DNA of 42,461 nt from a virus (IMGVR_UViG_2703719365_000009); one strand, 5' to 3'. Shown: positions 1 to 36,330, numbered from the stretch's first letter. The notes: generated by a model not told the origin, from the letters alone. A program made the numbers and translations.

Positions 1-1349
1 CCATCGATGCCGCCAGCCGCACCCTGACGCTGGACCGTGAGGTGACACTGCCGGAGACCGGTGCCGCCACGGTGAACCTGATTAACGGCAGCGGTAAGCC
101 GGTGAGTGTGGACATCACCGCACACCCCGCGCCGGACCGGATACAGGTCAGTACCCTGCCTGATGGTGTGGAGACATACGGGGTGTGGGGACTCTCCCTG
201 CCGTCACTGCGCCGTCGCCTGTTCCGCTGTGTCTCCGTCCGGGAAAACACGGACGGCACCTTTGCCATCACGGCGGTGCAGCACGTACCGGAAAAAGAAG
301 CCATCGTGGATAACGGTGCCCGCTTTGAGCCGCAGTCAGGTTCCCTGAACAGCGTCATCCCACCGGCAGTACAGCACCTGACGGTGGAGGTGAGTGCAGC
401 TGACGGCCAGTATCTGGCGCAGGCTAAATGGGACACGCCGCGGGTGGTGAAGGGCGTGCGCTTCAGTCTGCGCCTGACCAGTGGTAAGGGAACGGATGCC
501 AGACTGGTGACCACCGCCATCACCGCAGACACGGAGCACCGTTTCAGCGGCCTGCCGCTCGGGGAATACACCCTGACGGTGCGGGCGATAAACAGCTATG
601 GCCAGCAGGGTGAACCTGCCACCACCACCTTCCGGATTGCCGCACCGGCAGCACCGTCGCGGATTGAGCTGACGCCGGGCTATTTTCAGATAACCGCCAC
701 GCCGCATCTTGCCGTTTATGACCCGACGGTACAGTTTGAGTTCTGGTTCTCGGAAAAGCGGATTGCGGATATCAGGCAGGTTGAAACCGCAGCCCGCTAT
801 CTTGGCTCGGCGCTGTACTGGATAGCTGCCAGTATCAATATCAAACCGGGCCATGATTATTATTTTTATATCCGCAGTGTGAATACTGTTGGCAAATCGG
901 CATTCGTGGAGGCTGTCGGTCGGGCGAGCGATGATGCGGAAGGTTACCTGGATTTTTTCAAAGGAGAAATCGGGAAAACACATCTGGCCCAGGAGCTGTG
1001 GACGCAGATTGATAACGGTCAGCTTGCGCCGGACCTGGCTGAAATCAGGACGTCCATTACGAATGTCAGCAATGAAATCACGCAGACCGTCAATAAAAAA
1101 CTGGAAAATCAGAGTGCGGCAATCCAGCAGATACAGAAAGTTCAGGTTGATACAAATAATAACCTGAACAGCATGTGGGCCGTGAAACTGCAGCAGATGC
1201 AGGACGGACGCCTTTATATTGCGGGTATCGGTGCCGGTATTGAGAATACGCCAGCAGGAATGCAGAGTCAGGTGCTGCTGGCGGCAGACAGGATTGCGAT
1301 GATTAATCCTGCGAATGGCAACACAAAGCCGATGTTTGTAACCAGGTGA
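1..1349 (+). pseudogene. J: Host specificity / tail tip protein J (lambda J-like), upstream portion; frame enters from window start and is cut by the Mu-like insertion
   Basis: Frame open from nt 3 (5-prime partial). Translation ends ...[22 protein letters not shown] then TR-stop at the insertion end; the conserved continuation [15 protein letters not shown] reappears in frame at 40716. Confidence 0.85.
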
Positions 1350-1515
1350 ATCATTTGATACCGACAAGGGTTTTAGTGAAAGGAGGTGAAATCACCTGTA
1401 AGATGCTGAAATAAAACAGGTGATGTATACTTCGGCCGGAAAACTCTTTTTGATACCGACTGCTCAACAAATAGTCAAAAGATCAAAAAACGGCGACACA
1501 TTTGATACTGCTAAT
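1347..1515 (+). repeat. Left end (attL-like): three transposase-binding-like repeats
   Basis: TTTGATACCGAC at 1354-1365 and 1449-1460, TTTGATACTGC at 1501-1511; first site TGAATCATTTGATACCGACAAG resembles the Mu L1 site as recalled; same motif inverted at the right end. Confidence 0.6.
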
Positions 1516-1692
1516 TTACCCTTAAAATCTTCTTCAAAACATCTTCAAACTGCCAAAATGCTCACATAATCGATCTAACTATAATCAGTATGATAATCAT
1601 CATGAATTACTATTCAATAGCGTGATTATCTTGGGATGAGTCATATGATCTCTATATGTATTTACAGCACCACCTCATGATAGCGATGGCGC

Positions 1693-2304
1693 TTAACCAA
1701 CAACATTTTTCTTTACTGTCACTGCCCCTAATTCCTGGGTGGCGTTATTGCTCGAGTTGTACTTCTCAATAACGCGCAAAATCTCTTTGTCTGTTTCTTC
1801 ACTTCCCGCCATTCCTATCTTTATTGCATTTTTTAGTACGGGACGTAATGGCAAGGCATCAATGATGCTTTCTACCGCATCCTGGCTGATTGTAGATGTA
1901 TTCATTGCTGCCAGCCTGACAAGGTTGTTAGTACCTTCTCGCCTGATGAATGTAAGGATTAATTGCTTCTCTTGGGGGCTTAGAGAGCTAAGCGCCTGAT
2001 CAATACCCGAACCTGAATCGCAATTGTTTTCGATTTTTCCGCATTTATCTTCGTTCTTGCCTGTGACCAACCATTCGAGTGAACAATTACAGGCTTTAGC
2101 TATTAAGGCCAGTTTATCCAAAGGAGGGAAGTTTTTCCCCTTCCTGTAATTTCTTACTGTGGCTTCAGATAGTCCACAAAGGGTCGCCAGTTCGACGTTT
2201 GTCATGTTTCCCATAGCCATAGCTAAGCGTTCTGAAAATCGGTTTATTCCTTCCATATCAATAAACCGTTCCGCACTGGATACGGTTTTTTCTGCCTTAT
2301 CCAT
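1693..2304 (-). CDS. Prophage repressor (Mu c-like position; HTH-type regulator)
   Basis: 203-aa ORF divergent from ner-A-B; RBS AGGGGG before ATG at 2304; sits about 350 bp inside left end as in Mu; product call by position and HTH-like N-terminus. Confidence 0.7.
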   Translation of the reverse strand: MDKAEKTVSSAERFIDMEGINRFSERLAMAMGNMTNVELATLCGLSEATVRNYRKGKNFPPLDKLALIAKACNCSLEWLVTGKNEDKCGKIENNCDSGSGIDQALSSLSPQEKQLILTFIRREGTNNLVRLAAMNTSTISQDAVESIIDALPLRPVLKNAIKIGMAGSEETDKEILRVIEKYNSSNNATQELGAVTVKKNVVG

Positions 2305-2460
2305 ATAACCCCCTATAAAACAAAGAAATTATCGATATCGCATTTAATTTCGATATGCTCGCAAAAAACCGTTGATATCGAATTATTTTGCGATTATGAT
2401 TTACCTAAATCGATAACCGGTTTTGATTATCGGTTCAGGTAAACATGAGAGGATCACACA
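2305..2460. promoter_or_regulatory. Repressor/Ner operator region with divergent early promoters; about six TCGATA-type repeats
   Basis: Repeats TTATCGATATCG 2329-2340, TTTCGATATGC 2348-2358, GTTGATATCGAAT 2371-2383, CGATTATGAT 2391-2400, AAATCGATAACC 2408-2419, TTGATTATCGG 2423-2433; candidate rightward promoter -35 TTGATA 2372-2377 and -10 TATGAT 2395-2400. Confidence 0.6.
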
Positions 2461-2727
2461 ATGAGGGTATCCAGACAAGCATCGAATAATTTGTTTGTTC
2501 GAGAGGGGTGTGACTGGTCTGCTAAAGCGGTATATGCAGCCCTTGAAAACAAAGGCACAGACCTCCCTGAACTGGAAAGGGAGTTAGGATTAAAAAGCGG
2601 ATCAATGCGCAATGTGTTTTACCGCCAGTGCCGTAAATACGAAGCCGCCATCGCCGAAAAAATAGGGGTTGAACCTGCTGTAATCTGGCCCAGCAGATAC
2701 CAGGTGGACGCCAGAGAAGTGGCTTGA
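2461..2727 (+). CDS. ner: Ner-like DNA-binding early regulator
   Basis: 88 aa; C-terminal VIWPSRYQ motif matches Mu Ner as recalled; first gene of early operon with RBS GAGAGGA. Confidence 0.85.
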   Translation: MRVSRQASNNLFVREGCDWSAKAVYAALENKGTDLPELERELGLKSGSMRNVFYRQCRKYEAAIAEKIGVEPAVIWPSRYQVDAREVA

Positions 2728-2737
2728 TGGGGGATGT

Positions 2738-4828
2738 ATGTGGGTAACAGCAAAAGAATGTGTTGGTCTTCCTGATTTACCAATGATGGAACATAACATT
2801 CGCCATCGACTCACAAAAGCAGCTGCGGGAAATGCAGCCATGTTACGCAAACGTAAGGGGACAAAAGCAATCGAATTTAATATCGATTGTTTGCCTTCTG
2901 GCGCGCAACAAGTATTGCGTGAACGTTATGCCCTTCAACTGATGACGCAAAAAGCTGATGAATCACCGGCTCCGGTGGTGACAAAGGCCAGACGCTCGCC
3001 TGCCGTGGTTGATGCTGTGGAGGCATATCGCGGATCACCACAACTGATGGTTGAACGCCTTAATGCCCTGACTGAAAACCAGCGCCAGGTGGCTGATGCA
3101 CGAATCGCGATCGTCAGCGAAGTGATGAAAGTCGCGCAACAACCCGGTTTCAGCTGTGCGAAAGCTATCCGGTTTATCGTTGACAACCTGGCACGTTCGC
3201 AGCTGGACGAGCGCATTGTGGCAATGGTTGAGACGGCGAACGCCAAAAAGGGAAACAGCCGTGCGTTGAGTGAAATCACGCTGAAACGCTGGATTGCAGC
3301 CTTTAACAAGGCGCAGAACGCCGCCGAACGCCTGCTTTTACTGGCACCGGGTAAGCGCCAGGAAATAAAAGCCGAAGATATTAACTGGCTGCCCGAATTT
3401 CTGGCGCAGTATCGCCAGTCAAACGGCCGACCAATGACCGAGGCTTACGAGGATTTTGTCGCTGAATGGCAGCACCGGCACGCTGATGAGCCTTATATGC
3501 TCGATATCATGCCGTCTTATGACACCATTCGCCGCGCAATGAAGAAACTGCCGGAAGTGGTGAAACAAAAAGGCCGGGTGACCGGCAGTGAATACCGCCA
3601 GCTTGAGGGATTCACGCGCCGCGACTGGTCCAGAATGCCGGTGAATTATGTCTGGATTGGTGACGGTCACGGCATGAAGCTGAAATGCGCACACCCGGTT
3701 CACGGTCGGCCATTTGCACCGGAAGTGACCTTTGTTATCGACGGTGGCACGCGCTTTGTGGTGGGCTGGAGCCTTGACCTGGCTGAAAATGTTTTCGCCG
3801 TAGCCGGTGCCATACAGCACGGCATTCGCCATCACGGCAAACCGTTTCTGTATTACTCGGATAACGGCTCCGGGGAAACCGCCGACATCCTGGATAAGGA
3901 GGTTGTGGGGATACTGCCGCGACTGGGGATTAATCACCCGACCGGGATTGCCGGTAATCCGCAGGGACGAGGCATTATCGAACGGCTTAACCGCACATTA
4001 CCGATGCGCATAGCCCGTAAATACCGCACCTATTTCGGGAAAGGTGCAGATCGCGAGACGTTACGCAAAACCAACCGCGATTTACGCTCGGCATTTACTG
4101 CCCTGCAACAGGGCAAACGGCTGAACGTCCGGCAGCAGTCAGCGATGCGTGATTTACCGTCCTGGTCTGAACTGATTGATGCCATTCGTGACGGTGTTGA
4201 GTGGTACAACAACCGGCCGCACGATGAATTACCGGTGAAGCCGAACGGCAAGCATTACAGCCCGGCGGAGTTCAGAAAAAAACGCCTGGCGGAAGAGGAC
4301 ACGGAAATTGAATGGCTGTCCGATGTTGAGCTGCGGGATATGTTCCGGCCGATGGTGGAACGCCCTGTAAGACGCTGTGAAATACGCTGGCTGAATAATA
4401 TTTACTACGCGCCCGAGCTGCGTGACGAGCATGGTCGTAAGGTGCTTATCAGCTATGACATTCATGATGCCGAACGAATTACCGTACGTCGCCTGGATGG
4501 CAGCGTGATTTGCGAGGCGGTATGGGACGGTAATAAACGCGAAGCCTTCCCGGTCAGCGCGGAATACTACAAACAGCAGCAACGCCTTAAAGGCATGCGT
4601 AAACGCGCAGAGGAAAAAATCCGTGATGCCGAGGATGAGGTTGTCAACGTGCTGGAGCACAAGCCGCAGGAGCCCTGGCTGGAAAACATATACCGCCCTG
4701 TGGGTAATACGGTGGCCGTTCAGCAACCTGCCGTTGATGATGAGCCTGATGAAGAATACGAGCGTAATTTCCAGCGGGGATTGCAGTTGCTCGAAGCGAA
4801 ATTAAAAGAAAATGACCCGCTGGCCTGA
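2738..4828 (+). CDS. A: Transposase A (MuA-like DDE transposase)
   Basis: 696 aa; N-terminus MWVTAKECVGLPDLP resembles MuA N-terminus; position after ner. Confidence 0.93.
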   Translation: MWVTAKECVGLPDLPMMEHNIRHRLTKAAAGNAAMLRKRKGTKAIEFNIDCLPSGAQQVLRERYALQLMTQKADESPAPVVTKARRSPAVVDAVEAYRGSPQLMVERLNALTENQRQVADARIAIVSEVMKVAQQPGFSCAKAIRFIVDNLARSQLDERIVAMVETANAKKGNSRALSEITLKRWIAAFNKAQNAAERLLLLAPGKRQEIKAEDINWLPEFLAQYRQSNGRPMTEAYEDFVAEWQHRHADEPYMLDIMPSYDTIRRAMKKLPEVVKQKGRVTGSEYRQLEGFTRRDWSRMPVNYVWIGDGHGMKLKCAHPVHGRPFAPEVTFVIDGGTRFVVGWSLDLAENVFAVAGAIQHGIRHHGKPFLYYSDNGSGETADILDKEVVGILPRLGINHPTGIAGNPQGRGIIERLNRTLPMRIARKYRTYFGKGADRETLRKTNRDLRSAFTALQQGKRLNVRQQSAMRDLPSWSELIDAIRDGVEWYNNRPHDELPVKPNGKHYSPAEFRKKRLAEEDTEIEWLSDVELRDMFRPMVERPVRRCEIRWLNNIYYAPELRDEHGRKVLISYDIHDAERITVRRLDGSVICEAVWDGNKREAFPVSAEYYKQQQRLKGMRKRAEEKIRDAEDEVVNVLEHKPQEPWLENIYRPVGNTVAVQQPAVDDEPDEEYERNFQRGLQLLEAKLKENDPLA

Positions 4829-18346: not shown

Positions 18347-19661
18347 TTTAGGTTATGCCGCCACGCTTCCCTCAAAAGAGGCGGTGGCATACTTCCGCGC
18401 CAAAGGGGCGCATATCAGCTGGAACTGGTTCGAAACAGACGCGGATGTTCATGCCCGTTCATTCACGGCGGCAAAAGTGGCACGCCTGGACGTACTGACC
18501 ACACTACAGGCGGAAGTGCAGCGTGCTGTTGATGAGGGGATTTCACAGAAAGCATTTATCCGCACACTGACACCCCGCCTGCAAAAGCTGGGATGGTGGG
18601 GAAAGCAGATTGTGGTGGACAGCGCCGGTAACGCAGAAGAAGTGCAACTGGGCAGTCCCCGCCGTCTGGCGCTGATTTACAACGTGAACACCCGCGTGGC
18701 TTACAATGCCGGGCGTTACACGCAGATGATGAACAACACGGACACGCATCCGTTCTGGCAGTATGTGGCGGTGATGGACAGCCGCACCCGCCCGGCGCAT
18801 TCCGCCCTTAACGGGCAGGTATTCCGCTATGACGATCCGTTCTGGAATACACACTACCCACCCAATGGCTGGAACTGCCGCTGCCGTGTCCGGCCATTGT
18901 CTCAGACCCGTCTGGATGCAATGGGGTTATCCGTTTCATCCGGTCAGGATCATCTTTCCACCCGCAATGTTGAGGCTGGCGTGGATAAGCAGACCGGAGA
19001 AGTCAGAGAAATGCCGGTGACCACATATTCAGATGGCACCAGAACCATGACACCGGATGTGGGCTGGTCATATAACCCCGGCTCGGCGGCGTTCGGCACA
19101 GACCAGGCGTTGATCCGTAAACTGATCGAGGTGAAAAGCCCGGCGCTGCGGGAAATGGTGGTGCAGGAGATGAACAACAGCCCGGAGCGGCAGCTGGCGT
19201 TCCGCATCTGGGCAAAAAACATCATGAAAACCCGGCGAGGCGGTAACGATATCCGCACGCTGGGCTTTATGACCGAAAGCATTGCGCAGGCGGTGGAAAG
19301 CCGGACGGGAACGCCACCGGCCCGCCTGCTGGCGATGAGCGGTAAAAATGTGCTCCATGCGGACAGCGTGAAACATCAGAATGACGGCATCGCCCTGACG
19401 CCGGAGGATTTCGGGCGATTACCGGCAATGCTGGCAAAGCCAAAAGCGGTACTGTGGGATAAACGCCACAACAATCTGATGTATATCGTGGAAAGTAAGG
19501 ATGGCAGTGTGCAGATTGCCGTTAATGCGCCGTACAGCCTGAAGCGTCAGCCGGATAAACTGGATGTGATTGTGAATGCTTACCGGGTTATCAATATGGA
19601 TAAGCTGAAATCGGATATCCGGGGCGGAATGCTTGAGGTACTGGAAGGAGATATTGATTAA
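18330..19661 (+). CDS. Head morphogenesis protein (Mu F / gp30-like)
   Basis: 443 aa; follows portal, overlapping start. Confidence 0.8.
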   Translation: MAQGIDLGYAATLPSKEAVAYFRAKGAHISWNWFETDADVHARSFTAAKVARLDVLTTLQAEVQRAVDEGISQKAFIRTLTPRLQKLGWWGKQIVVDSAGNAEEVQLGSPRRLALIYNVNTRVAYNAGRYTQMMNNTDTHPFWQYVAVMDSRTRPAHSALNGQVFRYDDPFWNTHYPPNGWNCRCRVRPLSQTRLDAMGLSVSSGQDHLSTRNVEAGVDKQTGEVREMPVTTYSDGTRTMTPDVGWSYNPGSAAFGTDQALIRKLIEVKSPALREMVVQEMNNSPERQLAFRIWAKNIMKTRRGGNDIRTLGFMTESIAQAVESRTGTPPARLLAMSGKNVLHADSVKHQNDGIALTPEDFGRLPAMLAKPKAVLWDKRHNNLMYIVESKDGSVQIAVNAPYSLKRQPDKLDVIVNAYRVINMDKLKSDIRGGMLEVLEGDID

Positions 19662-19782
19662 CGGTCAGTGGCGGGGGTCGAACCCGCATACATGATCCAC
19701 CCGGAGGCAGGCACCGACTTTACCAGTTAAGCGTACACTGACCGCCTGCTTATTTTATATTCATATTTTATACGGAGGCAAT

Positions 19783-32164: not shown

Positions 32165-33246
32165 TGCCTTATCAGCCCTTACCACTGGCGCAACTGATCA
32201 CACAGACACAACAGGATATCAGCCAGCGCCTGCCCGGTTCGCAGCCGGGCGTGAATGAAACCACCCTGAATGCCATTGCGTATGCACTGGCGGGTCTGTC
32301 AGCACAGGAGCATGAACATCTGGCCTGGATCTCCCGGCAGATAATTCCGACAGAAGCTGATGAAGCCGAACTCCTGAAACACTGCGCATTCTGGGGTGTC
32401 ATCCGTAAACCGGCTTCCCGCGCTGACGGACCGGTACAACTGATGCTGACCACGGATGCAGGGATCACGGAAGGCGTACTCCTTCAGCGAAGCGATGGGG
32501 TTGTGTACCGCATCACCGGCTCTGCGACCGGAAAAGCCGGAACACTGAATGTTAATGTGGAGGCGGAAAGTGCGGGGCGCGCTGGAAATACCCCGACCGG
32601 AACCCGCCTGTCCTTTATCACGCCACAGGCGGGCATCAACCAGACAGCCACGGTCACCGGCACGGGACTCACCGGTGGTGCGGATGTGGAAACGGTGCCG
32701 GAGTTGCTGTCCAGGCTGGTATTCCGGGTACAGAACCCGCCATCAGGGGGAACACAGTATGATTTTGAACGCTGGGCACGGGAAGTACCGGGCGTGACGC
32801 GGGCATGGTGTAAGCCTGAATGGCCTGAGGCGGGTAGTGTTGGTGTGACTTTTGTTCAGGATAATAACCCTGACATTTTCCCCGGAGAAGGTGATGTGAA
32901 GCGGGTGGCGGATTATATCCGCAGTCATGATGATCCGGCGACGGGCCAGCCCGTTGGTCAGCCACTTGGGCCGACAATCAGCGTGTTTAAGCTGACCAAT
33001 AAGCCGGTGGCGTTTGAGATCAGGATTGTACCCAAAACGCCGGAAAATCAGGCTGCCGTAAAACAGGCATTAACAGACCTGCTTTATAACGAATCGCGGC
33101 CGGGTGGACTTGTATTGCCTTCATCATTCTGGCGGGCTGTTGCAGGGGTGAAAGGACTGGAGGATTTTGAAGTTCGCAGCCCGCTGAAGTCCGTGATGGC
33201 CGGAGATACAGAGTTGCTGACCGTGGGGGAAATCACATGGCTGTAA
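32161..33246 (+). CDS. Baseplate J-like protein (Mu gp47-like)
   Basis: 361 aa; overlapping start. Confidence 0.75.
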   Translation: MMPYQPLPLAQLITQTQQDISQRLPGSQPGVNETTLNAIAYALAGLSAQEHEHLAWISRQIIPTEADEAELLKHCAFWGVIRKPASRADGPVQLMLTTDAGITEGVLLQRSDGVVYRITGSATGKAGTLNVNVEAESAGRAGNTPTGTRLSFITPQAGINQTATVTGTGLTGGADVETVPELLSRLVFRVQNPPSGGTQYDFERWAREVPGVTRAWCKPEWPEAGSVGVTFVQDNNPDIFPGEGDVKRVADYIRSHDDPATGQPVGQPLGPTISVFKLTNKPVAFEIRIVPKTPENQAAVKQALTDLLYNESRPGGLVLPSSFWRAVAGVKGLEDFEVRSPLKSVMAGDTELLTVGEITWL

Positions 33247-33797
33247 CCCTGACCCCGCATCAGCGCGCCCTGTTGCAGTTGCTGCCTGACGGGCTGGCAT
33301 GGGATAAGCGGCCGTCATCCGTTCTTGCGGCTTTGTGCCTGGGCCTCAGTCATTCCACGGAGCGTGTTTCCTGGACCGGTAACCAGATGCTGGCAGAACG
33401 TTTTCCTGATTCATCCCGTCTGCTGCTGGAAGACTGGGAGCGTTATCTGGGGTTACCGGAATGTGATATGACCGGCGCAACCATTCAGGAGCGTCAGCGT
33501 TATGCCGGGAATAAATACCGGATGAAACCCTCTCTTAACCGTGAATTTTATATCCGGTTTGCGGCAGAGTTTGGTTATGAAATAGATATTCAGCCATCAC
33601 CGGATTCACAGTGGGTCAGTATTGTCACGATTAACAGTGAAACCGGCTACCGGAATATGAATGTGCTGGATGATATTCTCACGCCGCTGCGTATTTATGA
33701 AGGCGGTGCGCTGGAATGTATTCTGAACCGTTATAAGCCTGCATGGCAGACGTTTATTTACGTATATGCAAACAGTCACGAAGAGGAGAATATTTAA
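33237..33797 (+). CDS. Tail protein (Mu gp48-like)
   Basis: 186 aa; overlapping start. Confidence 0.7.
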   Translation: MAVTLTPHQRALLQLLPDGLAWDKRPSSVLAALCLGLSHSTERVSWTGNQMLAERFPDSSRLLLEDWERYLGLPECDMTGATIQERQRYAGNKYRMKPSLNREFYIRFAAEFGYEIDIQPSPDSQWVSIVTINSETGYRNMNVLDDILTPLRIYEGGALECILNRYKPAWQTFIYVYANSHEEENI

Positions 33798-34708
33798 TGT
33801 TCCATGTTGATAATAATTCCGGCGTGGCGAATATGCCTGCGCTGGCACCGGCGCAGAGTAATACCACCACCTGGTTTACCGAAGGTGACGGACAAAAAGG
33901 TATCAGCTGGATTGGTCAGGACTGGCTGAATATTCTCCAGGCCGAACTGCTGAATATTCTGGCTGAAGCCAGTATTCAGCCGGATAAGGCGCAGTTAAAC
34001 CAGCTTACGCTGTCCATTAAAGCCATTATCGCTGCGAATGCCTTTTCCCGGAAAAACAACCTGAAAGAAATTGCTGATGCCGGTGCGGAAGCCCAGCGTC
34101 TTGCCCGTGGTTATCTTGGTCTTGGGGCGCTTGCCACAAAAAACAGTCTTGGTCCCGGTGACGTTAATGCTCTGGCGAAGGATCAGAACCTTGCCGACCT
34201 GGAGAATGCGGGAACCGCCCGTAATAATCTGGATGTTTACAGCAAAAGCGAAGGTGATAACCGTTACCTGCGCAGGGAGCAGAACGGCGCAGACATTCCG
34301 GATAAAGGCGCTTTTATCGATAACGTCGGTTTACGGGAAACGGTAAATAAGGCTGCTGATGCCCTGCCATCGGGTGGAACCGCCGTGGCAGCAAACAGAC
34401 TCGCCACCCCAAGAAATATTAATGGCGTTCCTTTTGACGGAACGCAGGATATCAACATCACGTCAGGAATGACGCAGTCAACCGCAGATGGCCGGTATGT
34501 ACAGAATGTTCAGCTTGGAGCACAGAGCTATCATTCACCCGGAGGCAATGAAATATCATGGAATTACAGCGCACCTTCCGGTTGTATGCTTTCCGGTATT
34601 AACGTGCAGGAAACCGGCTCCCGGTCTGCGGACAATATCGGTGGGGTCTATTATCGCCCGGTTCAGATTTATATTAATAATGCCTGGAGAACGGTAAGTT
34701 CAGTGTAA
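33797..34708 (+). CDS. Tail fibre protein S: constant part plus variable C-terminus encoded inside the invertible segment (current orientation)
   Basis: ATG 33797 overlaps upstream stop (TAATG); C-terminal about 127 aa lie beyond gixL; homologous alternative C-terminus on the opposite strand. Confidence 0.8.
   Translation: MFHVDNNSGVANMPALAPAQSNTTTWFTEGDGQKGISWIGQDWLNILQAELLNILAEASIQPDKAQLNQLTLSIKAIIAANAFSRKNNLKEIADAGAEAQRLARGYLGLGALATKNSLGPGDVNALAKDQNLADLENAGTARNNLDVYSKSEGDNRYLRREQNGADIPDKGAFIDNVGLRETVNKAADALPSGGTAVAANRLATPRNINGVPFDGTQDINITSGMTQSTADGRYVQNVQLGAQSYHSPGGNEISWNYSAPSGCMLSGINVQETGSRSADNIGGVYYRPVQIYINNAWRTVSSV
34314..34339 (+). other. gixL-like inversion crossover site inside S
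   Basis: TTATCGATAACG-TC-GGTTTACGGGAA; 12-bp half-sites about 9/12 to the Hin/Gin half-site consensus; 2-bp core. Confidence 0.75.
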
Positions 34709-34718
34709 ACCACAGAAA

Positions 34719-34737
34719 AGGGTGCTGAATGCACCCT
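34719..34737. terminator. Hairpin between convergent S and tail-fibre-assembly stops (candidate bidirectional terminator)
   Basis: AGGGTGC-TGAAT-GCACCCT stem-loop; U-rich flank on the minus-strand side. Confidence 0.5.
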
Positions 34738-34742
34738 CTGAA

Positions 34743-35264
34743 TTATTCCGGTTTTTCCGGCCAGGGAATCGCCTGGTAATGCCCCTCACTGGCAATATCA
34801 TTAAAGTGCATTTCTTTAAGCTGTCGGATATACGCCATCCAGCGCGTCAGCTGTAATTTATTTTCATCGCTAATCATGTCCAGTTTTAATTCCGTTTTCC
34901 AGTCATCCACAGTTTCGTTGGCTTCCTGGAGCAGCGATGAGCGGCGCTTTTCAGCAACCGTCTTCCAGTTTACCGGCACCTTTGATATCAGGCCATCAGA
35001 AAACTGCCAGTTACCGTCAATATTCACACCTTCCGGCAGTTCGTCCACTTCAACAACAGTAAAACCTGCCGGATATAAAGCAGAGACATCTTCAGCAACA
35101 GAGCAGATAATACCCGTTACAGGCGAAATACAGAGTTTGTATTTCTTTGTGAAAAGCGGGATAGATTCATAAAAATCCCTTCCGTCCTCACTCTGGAAAT
35201 ACTGAACATCCTCACCATAGGGTTTGTGTTCCGGGTAATATCGTTTTACGTTAATAAGCTCCAT
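34743..35264 (-). CDS. Tail fibre assembly protein (Mu U/U-prime-like), in register with the alternative S C-terminus
   Basis: 174 aa from ATG 35264 with RBS AAGGTGA; the longer ORF to 35375 overlaps the alternative S cassette. Confidence 0.75.
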   Translation of the reverse strand: MELINVKRYYPEHKPYGEDVQYFQSEDGRDFYESIPLFTKKYKLCISPVTGIICSVAEDVSALYPAGFTVVEVDELPEGVNIDGNWQFSDGLISKVPVNWKTVAEKRRSSLLQEANETVDDWKTELKLDMISDENKLQLTRWMAYIRQLKEMHFNDIASEGHYQAIPWPEKPE

Positions 35265-35343
35265 TATTTCACCTTGTTTTTGTTGAAAAGACAAAATCAT
35301 CATATATTTATTCAGATAATCTGTTTTTTGAACTACTGCACTT

Positions 35344-35712
35344 TTATGCGCTGGAAGCTGTTTTCCACGAACCATCTATCAGAAACTGAACAGGTCGATA
35401 ATATGCGGTTACCGTTGCATTACCATCACCAGCGACATCAAGCCCTGTAAGTACGCATCCGTCAGGAACTTCAAAAATATTATATTGCATTCCAATCGTT
35501 GACCTTGAACCTCTTCGAATGCTTTGAACATAACGTGAGTCAGCCACAGACTGCGTCATCCCCGATGTAATATTTATATCCTGCGTTCCGTCAAATGGGA
35601 CACCATTAATATTTCTTGGAGTGGCGAGTTTATTCGCTGCAACAGCCGTTCCGTTCGATGGCAGGGCATTCGCCGCCTTATTTACCGTTTCCCGTAAACC
35701 GAGGTTTTCAGG
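35344..35712 (-). CDS. Alternative tail fibre C-terminal cassette (S-prime variable part), promoterless in the current orientation
   Basis: Minus-strand frame open from gixR core to stop at 35344; encodes GLRETVNKAANALPSNG...NITSGMTQS, homologous to the S region after gixL, then a divergent C-terminal tip. Confidence 0.75.
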   Translation of the reverse strand, partial: PENLGLRETVNKAANALPSNGTAVAANKLATPRNINGVPFDGTQDINITSGMTQSVADSRYVQSIRRGSRSTIGMQYNIFEVPDGCVLTGLDVAGDGNATVTAYYRPVQFLIDGSWKTASSA

Positions 35713-35724
35713 GATACCGTATAT
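35699..35724 (+). other. gixR-like inversion crossover site just upstream of gin
   Basis: TTCCCGTAAACC-GA-GGTTTTCAGGGA; core GA is the reverse complement of the gixL core TC. Confidence 0.75.
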
Positions 35725-35769: not shown

Positions 35770-36330
35770 ATGCTGATTGGCTATATACGCGTATCAACAA
35801 ATGACCAGAACACCGGTTTACAAAGAAATGCGCTGGAATGTGCAGGATGTGAGCAGATTTTTGAAGACAAAATGAGTGGTAAAACGACACAGCGGCCGGG
35901 ACTGAAGCGGGCACTGAAGAAACTAAAACCCGGTGACACACTGATGGTCTGGAAACTGGACAGGCTGGGGCGCAGTATGCGCCACCTTGTTGCGCTGACA
36001 GATGAATTACAGCAACAGGGGATAAATTTTCGTAGTCTTACTGACAACATTGATACGTCAACCCCCATGGGGCGCTTCTTTTTTCACATAATGGGTGCGC
36101 TGGCAGAAATGGAGCGTGAATTAATTGTCGAACGGACACGGGCTGGTCTTGCAGCTGCCCGTGAAAGGGGACGAACCGGCGGCAGACCCCGCCGTCTCAC
36201 GCAGGAACAATACGAGCAGGTCGGGCGTTTACTGGCCGGGGGTGTCAGTCGAAGACAGGTGGCACTTATTTTTGATATCGGCCTTTCAACCCTTTATCGT
36301 TATTATCCTGCGAGCGTTTCGGAAAAATAA
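35770..36330 (+). CDS. gin: Gin/Hin/Pin-family serine DNA invertase
   Basis: 186 aa; N-terminal GYIRVSTNDQ catalytic serine motif and C-terminal HTH; RBS AAGGAAGG; adjacent to gixR. Confidence 0.95.
   Translation: MLIGYIRVSTNDQNTGLQRNALECAGCEQIFEDKMSGKTTQRPGLKRALKKLKPGDTLMVWKLDRLGRSMRHLVALTDELQQQGINFRSLTDNIDTSTPMGRFFFHIMGALAEMERELIVERTRAGLAAARERGRTGGRPRRLTQEQYEQVGRLLAGGVSRRQVALIFDIGLSTLYRYYPASVSEK

Follow-up and report, generated by a model that had tools for sequence, protein, structure and literature searches.

The 3-kb G segment of phage Mu, inverted by the invertase Gin, holds two pairs of tail-fibre end and chaperone gene, S-U and U'-S'. The C segment of P1, served by the invertase Cin, likewise provides each orientation with its own tail-fibre assembly protein (Tfa), encoded immediately after the fibre tip, and a P1 record gave two Tfa matches. 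We have analyzed a more compact segment in a viral stretch of 42,461 nt, IMGVR_UViG_2703719365_000009 (hereafter the window, meaning the whole stretch), within which lie the tail-fibre gene S, the segment from gixL to gixR, a tfa gene and the invertase gene gin. In Fels-2, P88 and Cartapus an invertase of the same family (71–75% identical) stands beside tail-to-tail fibre ends, as it does in the window, but unlike the window each orientation in these phages has its own Tfa immediately after the tip. The window segment has two alternative fibre ends and one Tfa. It is a variant of the Mu G-segment type, well supported as anatomy, and the explanation toward which we lean, with confidence a little better than even, is an inversion switch with one shared chaperone that would be transcribed from inside the segment whichever way the segment lies.

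Judged by sequence, the window is a complete Mu-like prophage of the Sp18 type, from Shiga-toxin Escherichia coli (STEC). At 99.6% identity the region matched prophages of numerous STEC genomes, those of E. coli O157:H7 among them; to stretches annotated as inserted Mu-like phage it was 94% identical, and its baseplate and fibre genes followed the Mu-type order. The host-specificity region of Sp18 is invertible and has been marked as atypical, and Sp18 was judged intact and its DNA found to be packaged (Asadulghani et al., PMC2669165). The switch itself is already known through Sp18; no mention of its single chaperone was found in the literature searched. The features of the window on which the analysis draws are the following.

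33797–34708, plus strand: S, tail-fibre gene, 303 amino acids (aa), reading through gixL
33797–34325, plus strand: Sc, the constant N-terminal part of S, ~176 codons, ending at the gixL crossover
34314–34339: gixL, 26-bp crossover site, TTATCGATAACG-TC-GGTTTACGGGAA, core TC at 34326–34327
34319–34503: left arm of the inverted repeat, 185 nt, the shared start of both cassettes
34326–34708, plus strand: SvT, the currently expressed variable end, tip type T1 (...SADNIGGVYYRPVQIYINNAWRTVSSV), tail-to-tail with tfa
34717–34739: hairpin flanked by the stop codons of SvT and tfa, which may act in both directions
35264 to 34743, minus strand: tfa, tail-fibre assembly (chaperone) gene, 173 aa, ribosome-binding site AAGGTGA
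35265–35343, minus strand: AT-rich, non-coding tfa leader, 79 nt between the SvH stop and the tfa start
35702 to 35344, minus strand: SvH (Sv'), the silent alternative end, tip type H1, head-to-tail upstream of tfa
35525–35709: right arm of the inverted repeat, 185 nt
35689–35714: gixR, 26-bp crossover site, TTCCCGTAAACC-GA-GGTTTTCAGGGA, core GA at 35701–35702
35770–36330, plus strand: gin, serine DNA invertase (Pfam Resolvase, 1.4e-51; HTH_7, 1.7e-14)

The reverse complement of gixR reads TCCCTGAAAACC-TC-GGTTTACGGGAA, so that gixL and gixR are inverted relative to each other with identical 2-bp cores, and both sites agree with the gix of Mu, TTATCCAAAACC-TC-GGTTTACAGGAA, in their TC core and in an inner half-site that reads GGTTTAC[A/G]GGAA. 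The two sites are located at the outer ends of the inverted repeat, whose arms are 81% complementary over 185 nt, with the innermost ~30 nt identical. A reading of the DNA made earlier from the sequence alone (the sequence-only reading) had placed gixL and gixR around a segment of about 1.39 kb with gin next to gixR, and both points agree with our measurements: the distance between the two cores is 1,377 bp, and gin, to the right of the segment as in Mu, begins shortly after gixR. The adjoining invertase belongs to the Gin subfamily, with 76% identity to Mu Gin at the protein level and 67–80% nucleotide identity over the first 360 nt of the gene, the 5' part in which switches of the Gin/Hin/Cin/Pin type have a Fis-dependent recombinational enhancer.

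The crossover falls inside the fibre gene, at the same residues as in Mu (...NxGLxETVN...), and gives one N terminus alternative in-frame C termini. When the segment was inverted in silico, Sc was joined in frame to SvH, yielding an intact S' of 295 aa as against the 303 aa of S as found. The two C termini share 52 of their first 57 residues, and their tips are then identical at 28 of 66 positions, in keeping with the near-identical starts and diverging tips that the sequence-only reading had described. Among known systems the Mu G segment with Gin is the closest, a group that also takes in D108, SfMu and the Mu-type prophage of E. coli FDAARGOS_1059. Sc, the extreme tip and the Tfa all have homologues in Mu: the N terminus of S is 46% identical to Mu S residues 1–198, Sc matches residues 1–191 of chain A in PDB 5YVQ, and the SvT tip is 41% identical to Mu S residues 437–503. 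The ~245 Mu S residues between the N terminus and the extreme tip are missing from the window S, and the variable parts are 119–127 aa in the window as against ~320–335 aa in Mu. The segment is compact, at 1.38 kb as against 3 kb in Mu, with one Tfa instead of U plus U'.

To determine which orientations occur, we searched complete E. coli genomes with the window sequence and with its in-silico flipped version, requiring at least 80% of the query to be covered. The window orientation was found in 182 genomes and the flipped orientation in 26, and among IMG/VR loci with relatives of the window Tfa the counts were 16 and 5. Both orientations occur at at least 99% identity, even inside a single genome: strain Z869 (NZ_CP062782) has two prophage copies in opposite orientations (hits H8 and H43), and strain 8479 has a copy on a 167-kb plasmid and a chromosomal copy, again opposed (NZ_CP074995 and NZ_CP074994; H12 and H48). 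Since both orientations are present in public genomes, inversion happens in nature, and the switch works. The sequence-only reading had named the detection of a single orientation only as a result that would overturn it, and two were found. A frozen relic that no longer inverts could appeal to the strong bias of ~7:1 toward the present orientation and to nothing else; the matching gix cores, the intact gin and, decisively, the near-identical copies in both orientations refute it, and we regard it as practically untenable.

The single chaperone gene is the feature that sets the segment apart. The product of tfa belongs to the Pfam family Caudo_TAP (PF02413; 3e-18, 66.6 bits against a cut-off of 22.1), matches chain B of PDB 5YVQ, the solved Mu S-U complex, with 2e-15, and is 28–31% identical to Mu U and U'. 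In Mu, the N-terminal domain of the Tfa binds the distal fibre and the protein stays on the virion, and a role in tip binding and trimerisation is known for U (PMC9608196). From this homology and from its linkage to the fibre gene, the window Tfa would likewise bind the fibre tip and be needed for trimerisation. It is the only Caudo_TAP gene in the window, so that the two pairs of fibre end and chaperone, Sv-U and Sv'-U', are not both present, and searches of the whole window by tblastn with the window Tfa, Mu U and Mu U' found no second tfa. A 44-aa open reading frame (ORF) after S (34722–34856) was considered as a second tfa and rejected, since it runs antisense to tfa and is not conserved in a related locus, L016. 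As the sequence-only reading had stated, the single gene is co-oriented with the silent cassette, both lying on the minus strand, and the contrast that it drew with Mu, which has S-U and S'-U', also stands. In the present orientation tfa is convergent to S, with 35 bp between the two stop codons, and therefore cannot be read from the late operon.

We wondered to which of the two tips this Tfa belongs, and surveyed the arrangement of tip and Tfa in 80 IMG/VR loci with relatives of the window Tfa. The T-tip motif DN[IV]xGVYY stood beside the Tfa relative in 64 of the 80 and in the H position in none. In 35 loci, all without an invertase, the motif was co-oriented and directly upstream, with a gap of ~14 nt and a Tfa 53–58% identical to that of the window; the remaining 29 loci were convergent and Sp18-like, with the motif just downstream of tfa. 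The pairing of T-type tips with the Tfa family of the window was thus constant. It is also found in Rac-SA53, whose tip is 70% identical to SvT and matches SvH at only 17 of 41 positions; its Tfa, encoded directly after the tip on the same strand, is the closest relative of the window Tfa among phage records (53% overall, 66% in the N-terminal domain). Phages of the Rac-SA53 kind are not invertible and, unlike the window, have neither an invertase nor an alternative tip. The H tips have other partners. Among phages the H1 tip is closest to the tip of the fibre in Hafnia phage yong1 (59% identity), behind which lies a Mu-U-like Tfa 32% identical to that of the window, and H2 tips resemble the Mu S tip (40 of 67 positions), whose partner is U; the Mu-U-type Tfas behind the relatives of H1 and H2 are only ~32–35% identical to the window Tfa. 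By association, the resident Tfa appears to be the usual companion of the expressed tip, although encoded on the opposite strand, and the H tips look like guests.

These data bear directly on the view of the sequence-only reading, in which the expressed S variant has no cognate assembly gene downstream. On that view the resident Tfa plays no part in making the T1 fibre, whose tip folds unaided or is helped in trans by the Tfa of another resident prophage, and tfa serves only the co-oriented H cassette. The convergence of tfa with S, the failure to detect a promoter upstream of tfa, the poor score of the window hairpin as a terminator for the S strand and the many other prophages carried by STEC strains (PMC2669165) are all in its favour. 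It is difficult to reconcile with the position of window-family Tfas directly behind T-type tips, at 0–16 nt in the 35 non-invertible loci and Rac-SA53; because T-type tips are so constantly linked to a Tfa gene, we argue that such tips need a Tfa. The U-type Tfas used by the closest relatives of H1 and H2, and the intact tfa retained by locked derivatives in which S and tfa converge (described below), point in the same direction. We therefore consider a T1 fibre independent of the resident Tfa unlikely. The anatomy drawn by the sequence-only reading (gix sites, gin, two C termini, single tfa) stands, whereas its conclusion that the expressed fibre lacks a cognate chaperone is not supported.

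A second alternative is decay, in which one of the two chaperones of an ancestral, Mu-like segment of four genes has been lost and particles made in the present orientation are fibre-less or non-infective, so that it is effectively an off state. The two Tfas of the canonical relatives Mu, Fels-2, P88 and Cartapus would fit such a history, as would the gin-less derivatives and a 57-aa Tfa stub in a Yersinia phage that looks like an intermediate (both described below). We compared nine modules in detail by DNA alignment. They contained two types of Tfa, A and B (61–64% identical), two T-position tip types and three H-position tip types, with tip and Tfa modules shuffled among the nine loci. Nonetheless, the order was the same in all nine: Sc, then an invertible unit in which SvT runs toward the hairpin from one side and SvH, leader and tfa run toward it from the other, and then gin, or the inverse of this unit. 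This constancy across the two Tfa types, and across the 29 IMG/VR loci, runs counter to decay; the one-chaperone layout is conserved and old, and is no accident. Alleles of T1 had ratios of nonsynonymous to synonymous substitution rates (dN/dS) of 0.05–0.12 at synonymous rates (dS) of 0.4 to above 2, and tfa had a dN/dS of 0.15–0.26. The low values for T1 imply that the cassette without a co-oriented chaperone is maintained by selection, and such strong purifying selection within the Sp18-type family speaks against decay. The supposedly defective orientation is, moreover, the majority form in lysogens by both of the counts given above, and Sp18 was judged intact, with its DNA packaged (PMC2669165). 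On these grounds we judge decay improbable.

The locked derivatives are informative about tfa in the convergent state. Loci L016 (4302–4607) and L021 (4696–5001) share an identical deletion of ~1 kb, in which gixR and the greater part of both SvH and gin have been lost, and which fixes S and tfa in convergence while leaving tfa and its leader intact in both. The two loci have one deletion scar and two different T tips. The locked form was found in at least seven complete E. coli genomes (NZ_CP011018 and six others). In L016 the SvH remnant yields the sequence ATGATA-17-TATAAT upstream of tfa, a sigma-70-like site matching at 10 of 12 positions and the only one of that quality among the loci scanned.

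If a single Tfa is to serve the expressed tip, it must be made from a gene that the late operon does not reach, and the layout around tfa was examined from this standpoint. The tfa leader is 79 nt in the window, 52–120 nt in its invertible relatives and 107 nt in the Erwinia phage ENT90, in contrast to a tip-to-tfa gap of 2 nt in Mu and of 0–16 nt in the non-invertible relatives of the window Tfa; P88, Fels-2 and Cartapus, which have the canonical two Tfas, show no such leader. We regard the 79-nt leader as a candidate position for a promoter of tfa. Conservation was seen in the leader and also in the adjoining 5' end of tfa, and is therefore uninformative as a sign of constraint on the leader. 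The hairpin between the two stop codons keeps its position in L016, L021, L027 and L004, with a different stem sequence. Taken together, the leader, a strong ribosome-binding site of its own, the hairpin and the locked derivatives suggest that tfa has its own expression signals. Just after the H2 stop, the type-B leader of L004 (~2485–2520), and the same place in L005 and L027, holds the fossil 3' end of an older tip (...NGSWRTAGSA*), which points to past replacement of H-position tips through recombination.

The locus is a host-range switch in which Gin recombines gixL with gixR and inverts the 1.38-kb segment, fusing Sc to the T1 tip in the present state or to the H1 tip in the flipped state. 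Under the shared-chaperone explanation, the single Tfa would serve both fibre variants. With the segment flipped, tfa would share a transcript with S'. As the segment now lies, transcription of tfa would have to start within it, with a promoter either at the 3' end of the H cassette or in the 79-nt leader, and both transcripts would stop at the shared hairpin. That tfa is expressed in the present orientation, and that its product acts on both tips, are predictions of this scheme.

Several observations weigh against it. A sigma-70 scan found no convincing promoter upstream of tfa in the window leader, and the Mu C-box TTAT-N6-ATAA is absent upstream of tfa in the window. The hairpin of the window scores as a good terminator only for the tfa strand and poorly for the S strand, so that read-through from S could produce antisense RNA against tfa. 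The N-terminal domains of Mu U and U' are 72% identical and yet serve different tips, and in one P2-like phage the partner of a T-like tip is a U-type Tfa; association at the level of families is no proof of specificity. The orientation counts behind the ~7:1 bias are phylogenetically non-independent, and the locked derivatives may simply be decaying prophages.

The search for promoters was extended to related loci. Sigma-70 scans of the leaders in L004, L036 and ENT90 found no convincing site. The motif TTAT-N6-ATAA was seen in Mu Pmom, and its matches in the window at up to one mismatch are uninformative; inspection by eye of the prophage intergenic regions, and of Plys, PI and Pmom of Mu, yielded no late-promoter motif. 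The tips contain TATTAT boxes, which were rejected as promoter elements because they arise from YY codons and lack specificity.

A segment with two chaperones, as in Mu, Fels-2, P88 and Cartapus, is usual but not universal, and one exception is ENT90 (L094; HQ110084, 1–2522). As in the window, its invertase-linked segment has one Caudo_TAP gene, and the order of tip, leader, tfa, bidirectional hairpin, opposing tip and invertase matches the window design. Its features are as follows.

53–125 and 422–446: left inverted repeats of ENT90, each against the right repeat
900–1373: Tfa gene of ENT90, with a 107-nt leader
1382–1403: perfect, bidirectional hairpin
1777–1850: right inverted repeat

ENT90 differs from the window in being P2-like, in having three unrelated tips of the Gp53-like_C type and in the subfamily of its Tfa. 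Because there are three tips and two left-hand repeats, multiple inversions are possible. No description of the invertible fibre region of ENT90 was found in the searchable literature. The window and ENT90 together may represent a class of invertible host-range cassettes in which one shared chaperone, transcribed from an internal promoter in either orientation, caps two tips, including foreign ones whose relatives use another chaperone family. The design would then seem to have two independent origins, one in the Mu-like family, which is present in at least 200 genomes of E. coli, and one in ENT90, a P2-like phage. We put this generalization forward tentatively, with slightly less than even confidence.

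Other compact or partial relatives were compared. In Yersinia phage vB_YenM_201.16 (L095, 1229–4067) all that comes after the expressed fibre gene is an ORF of 57 aa, which is annotated as Tfa but has no Pfam match; a full Tfa is found with the opposite cassette. In the region 1229–4067 no inverted repeat of 20 nt or longer was detected. The carotovoricin segment described by Nguyen et al. in 2001 is reportedly ~790 bp long, with no chaperone gene inside. Like the window segment, the carotovoricin Er locus is compact and swaps only the C-terminal end of the fibre, although it belongs to a tailocin and not to a phage. About half of the carotovoricin Er loci have the invertase (Ein) and the others lack it, and recombination has exchanged their tips (PMC13195805), which parallels the gin-less locked derivatives and shuffled tips of the window family. 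The CP066032 locus, cited for phage tail fibre inversion (PMC9881135), was also considered as a relative and set aside, as it is a canonical two-Tfa prophage of the Mu type.

The system is a common, inducible STEC prophage and reveals no new kind of system; its interest lies in the chaperone. A Tfa is generally regarded as the strict partner of its own tip, and the Mu chaperone stays on the virion and helps in host recognition. If the shared-chaperone explanation is correct, a natural switch with one chaperone for two or more tips would show the extent to which a Tfa lends itself to reuse. This would be relevant to the engineering of phage and tailocin host range, in which the choice of a matching chaperone is a practical obstacle, and would explain how new tips are slotted into such segments by recombination.

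Rfam and transfer RNA (tRNA) scans of the switch region returned no match, and neither did a search of the genome contigs with the window Tfa. An intergenic sequence at 19660–19700 of the window, GGCGGGGGTCGAACCCGCA, resembles a tRNA T-arm; ARAGORN found no tRNA anywhere in the window. Two neighbouring genes complete the description of the region.

33237–33797: Mu gp48 domain (Pfam) of a Mu-type baseplate gene, upstream of S
36430–38469, plus strand: SASA carbohydrate-esterase and DUF6645 protein, 679 aa, directly after gin

The second of these replaces com/mom, whose place it takes relative to Mu, and its product could be a receptor-modifying or lysogenic-conversion enzyme. The gene is kept in every Sp18-like locus that we examined.

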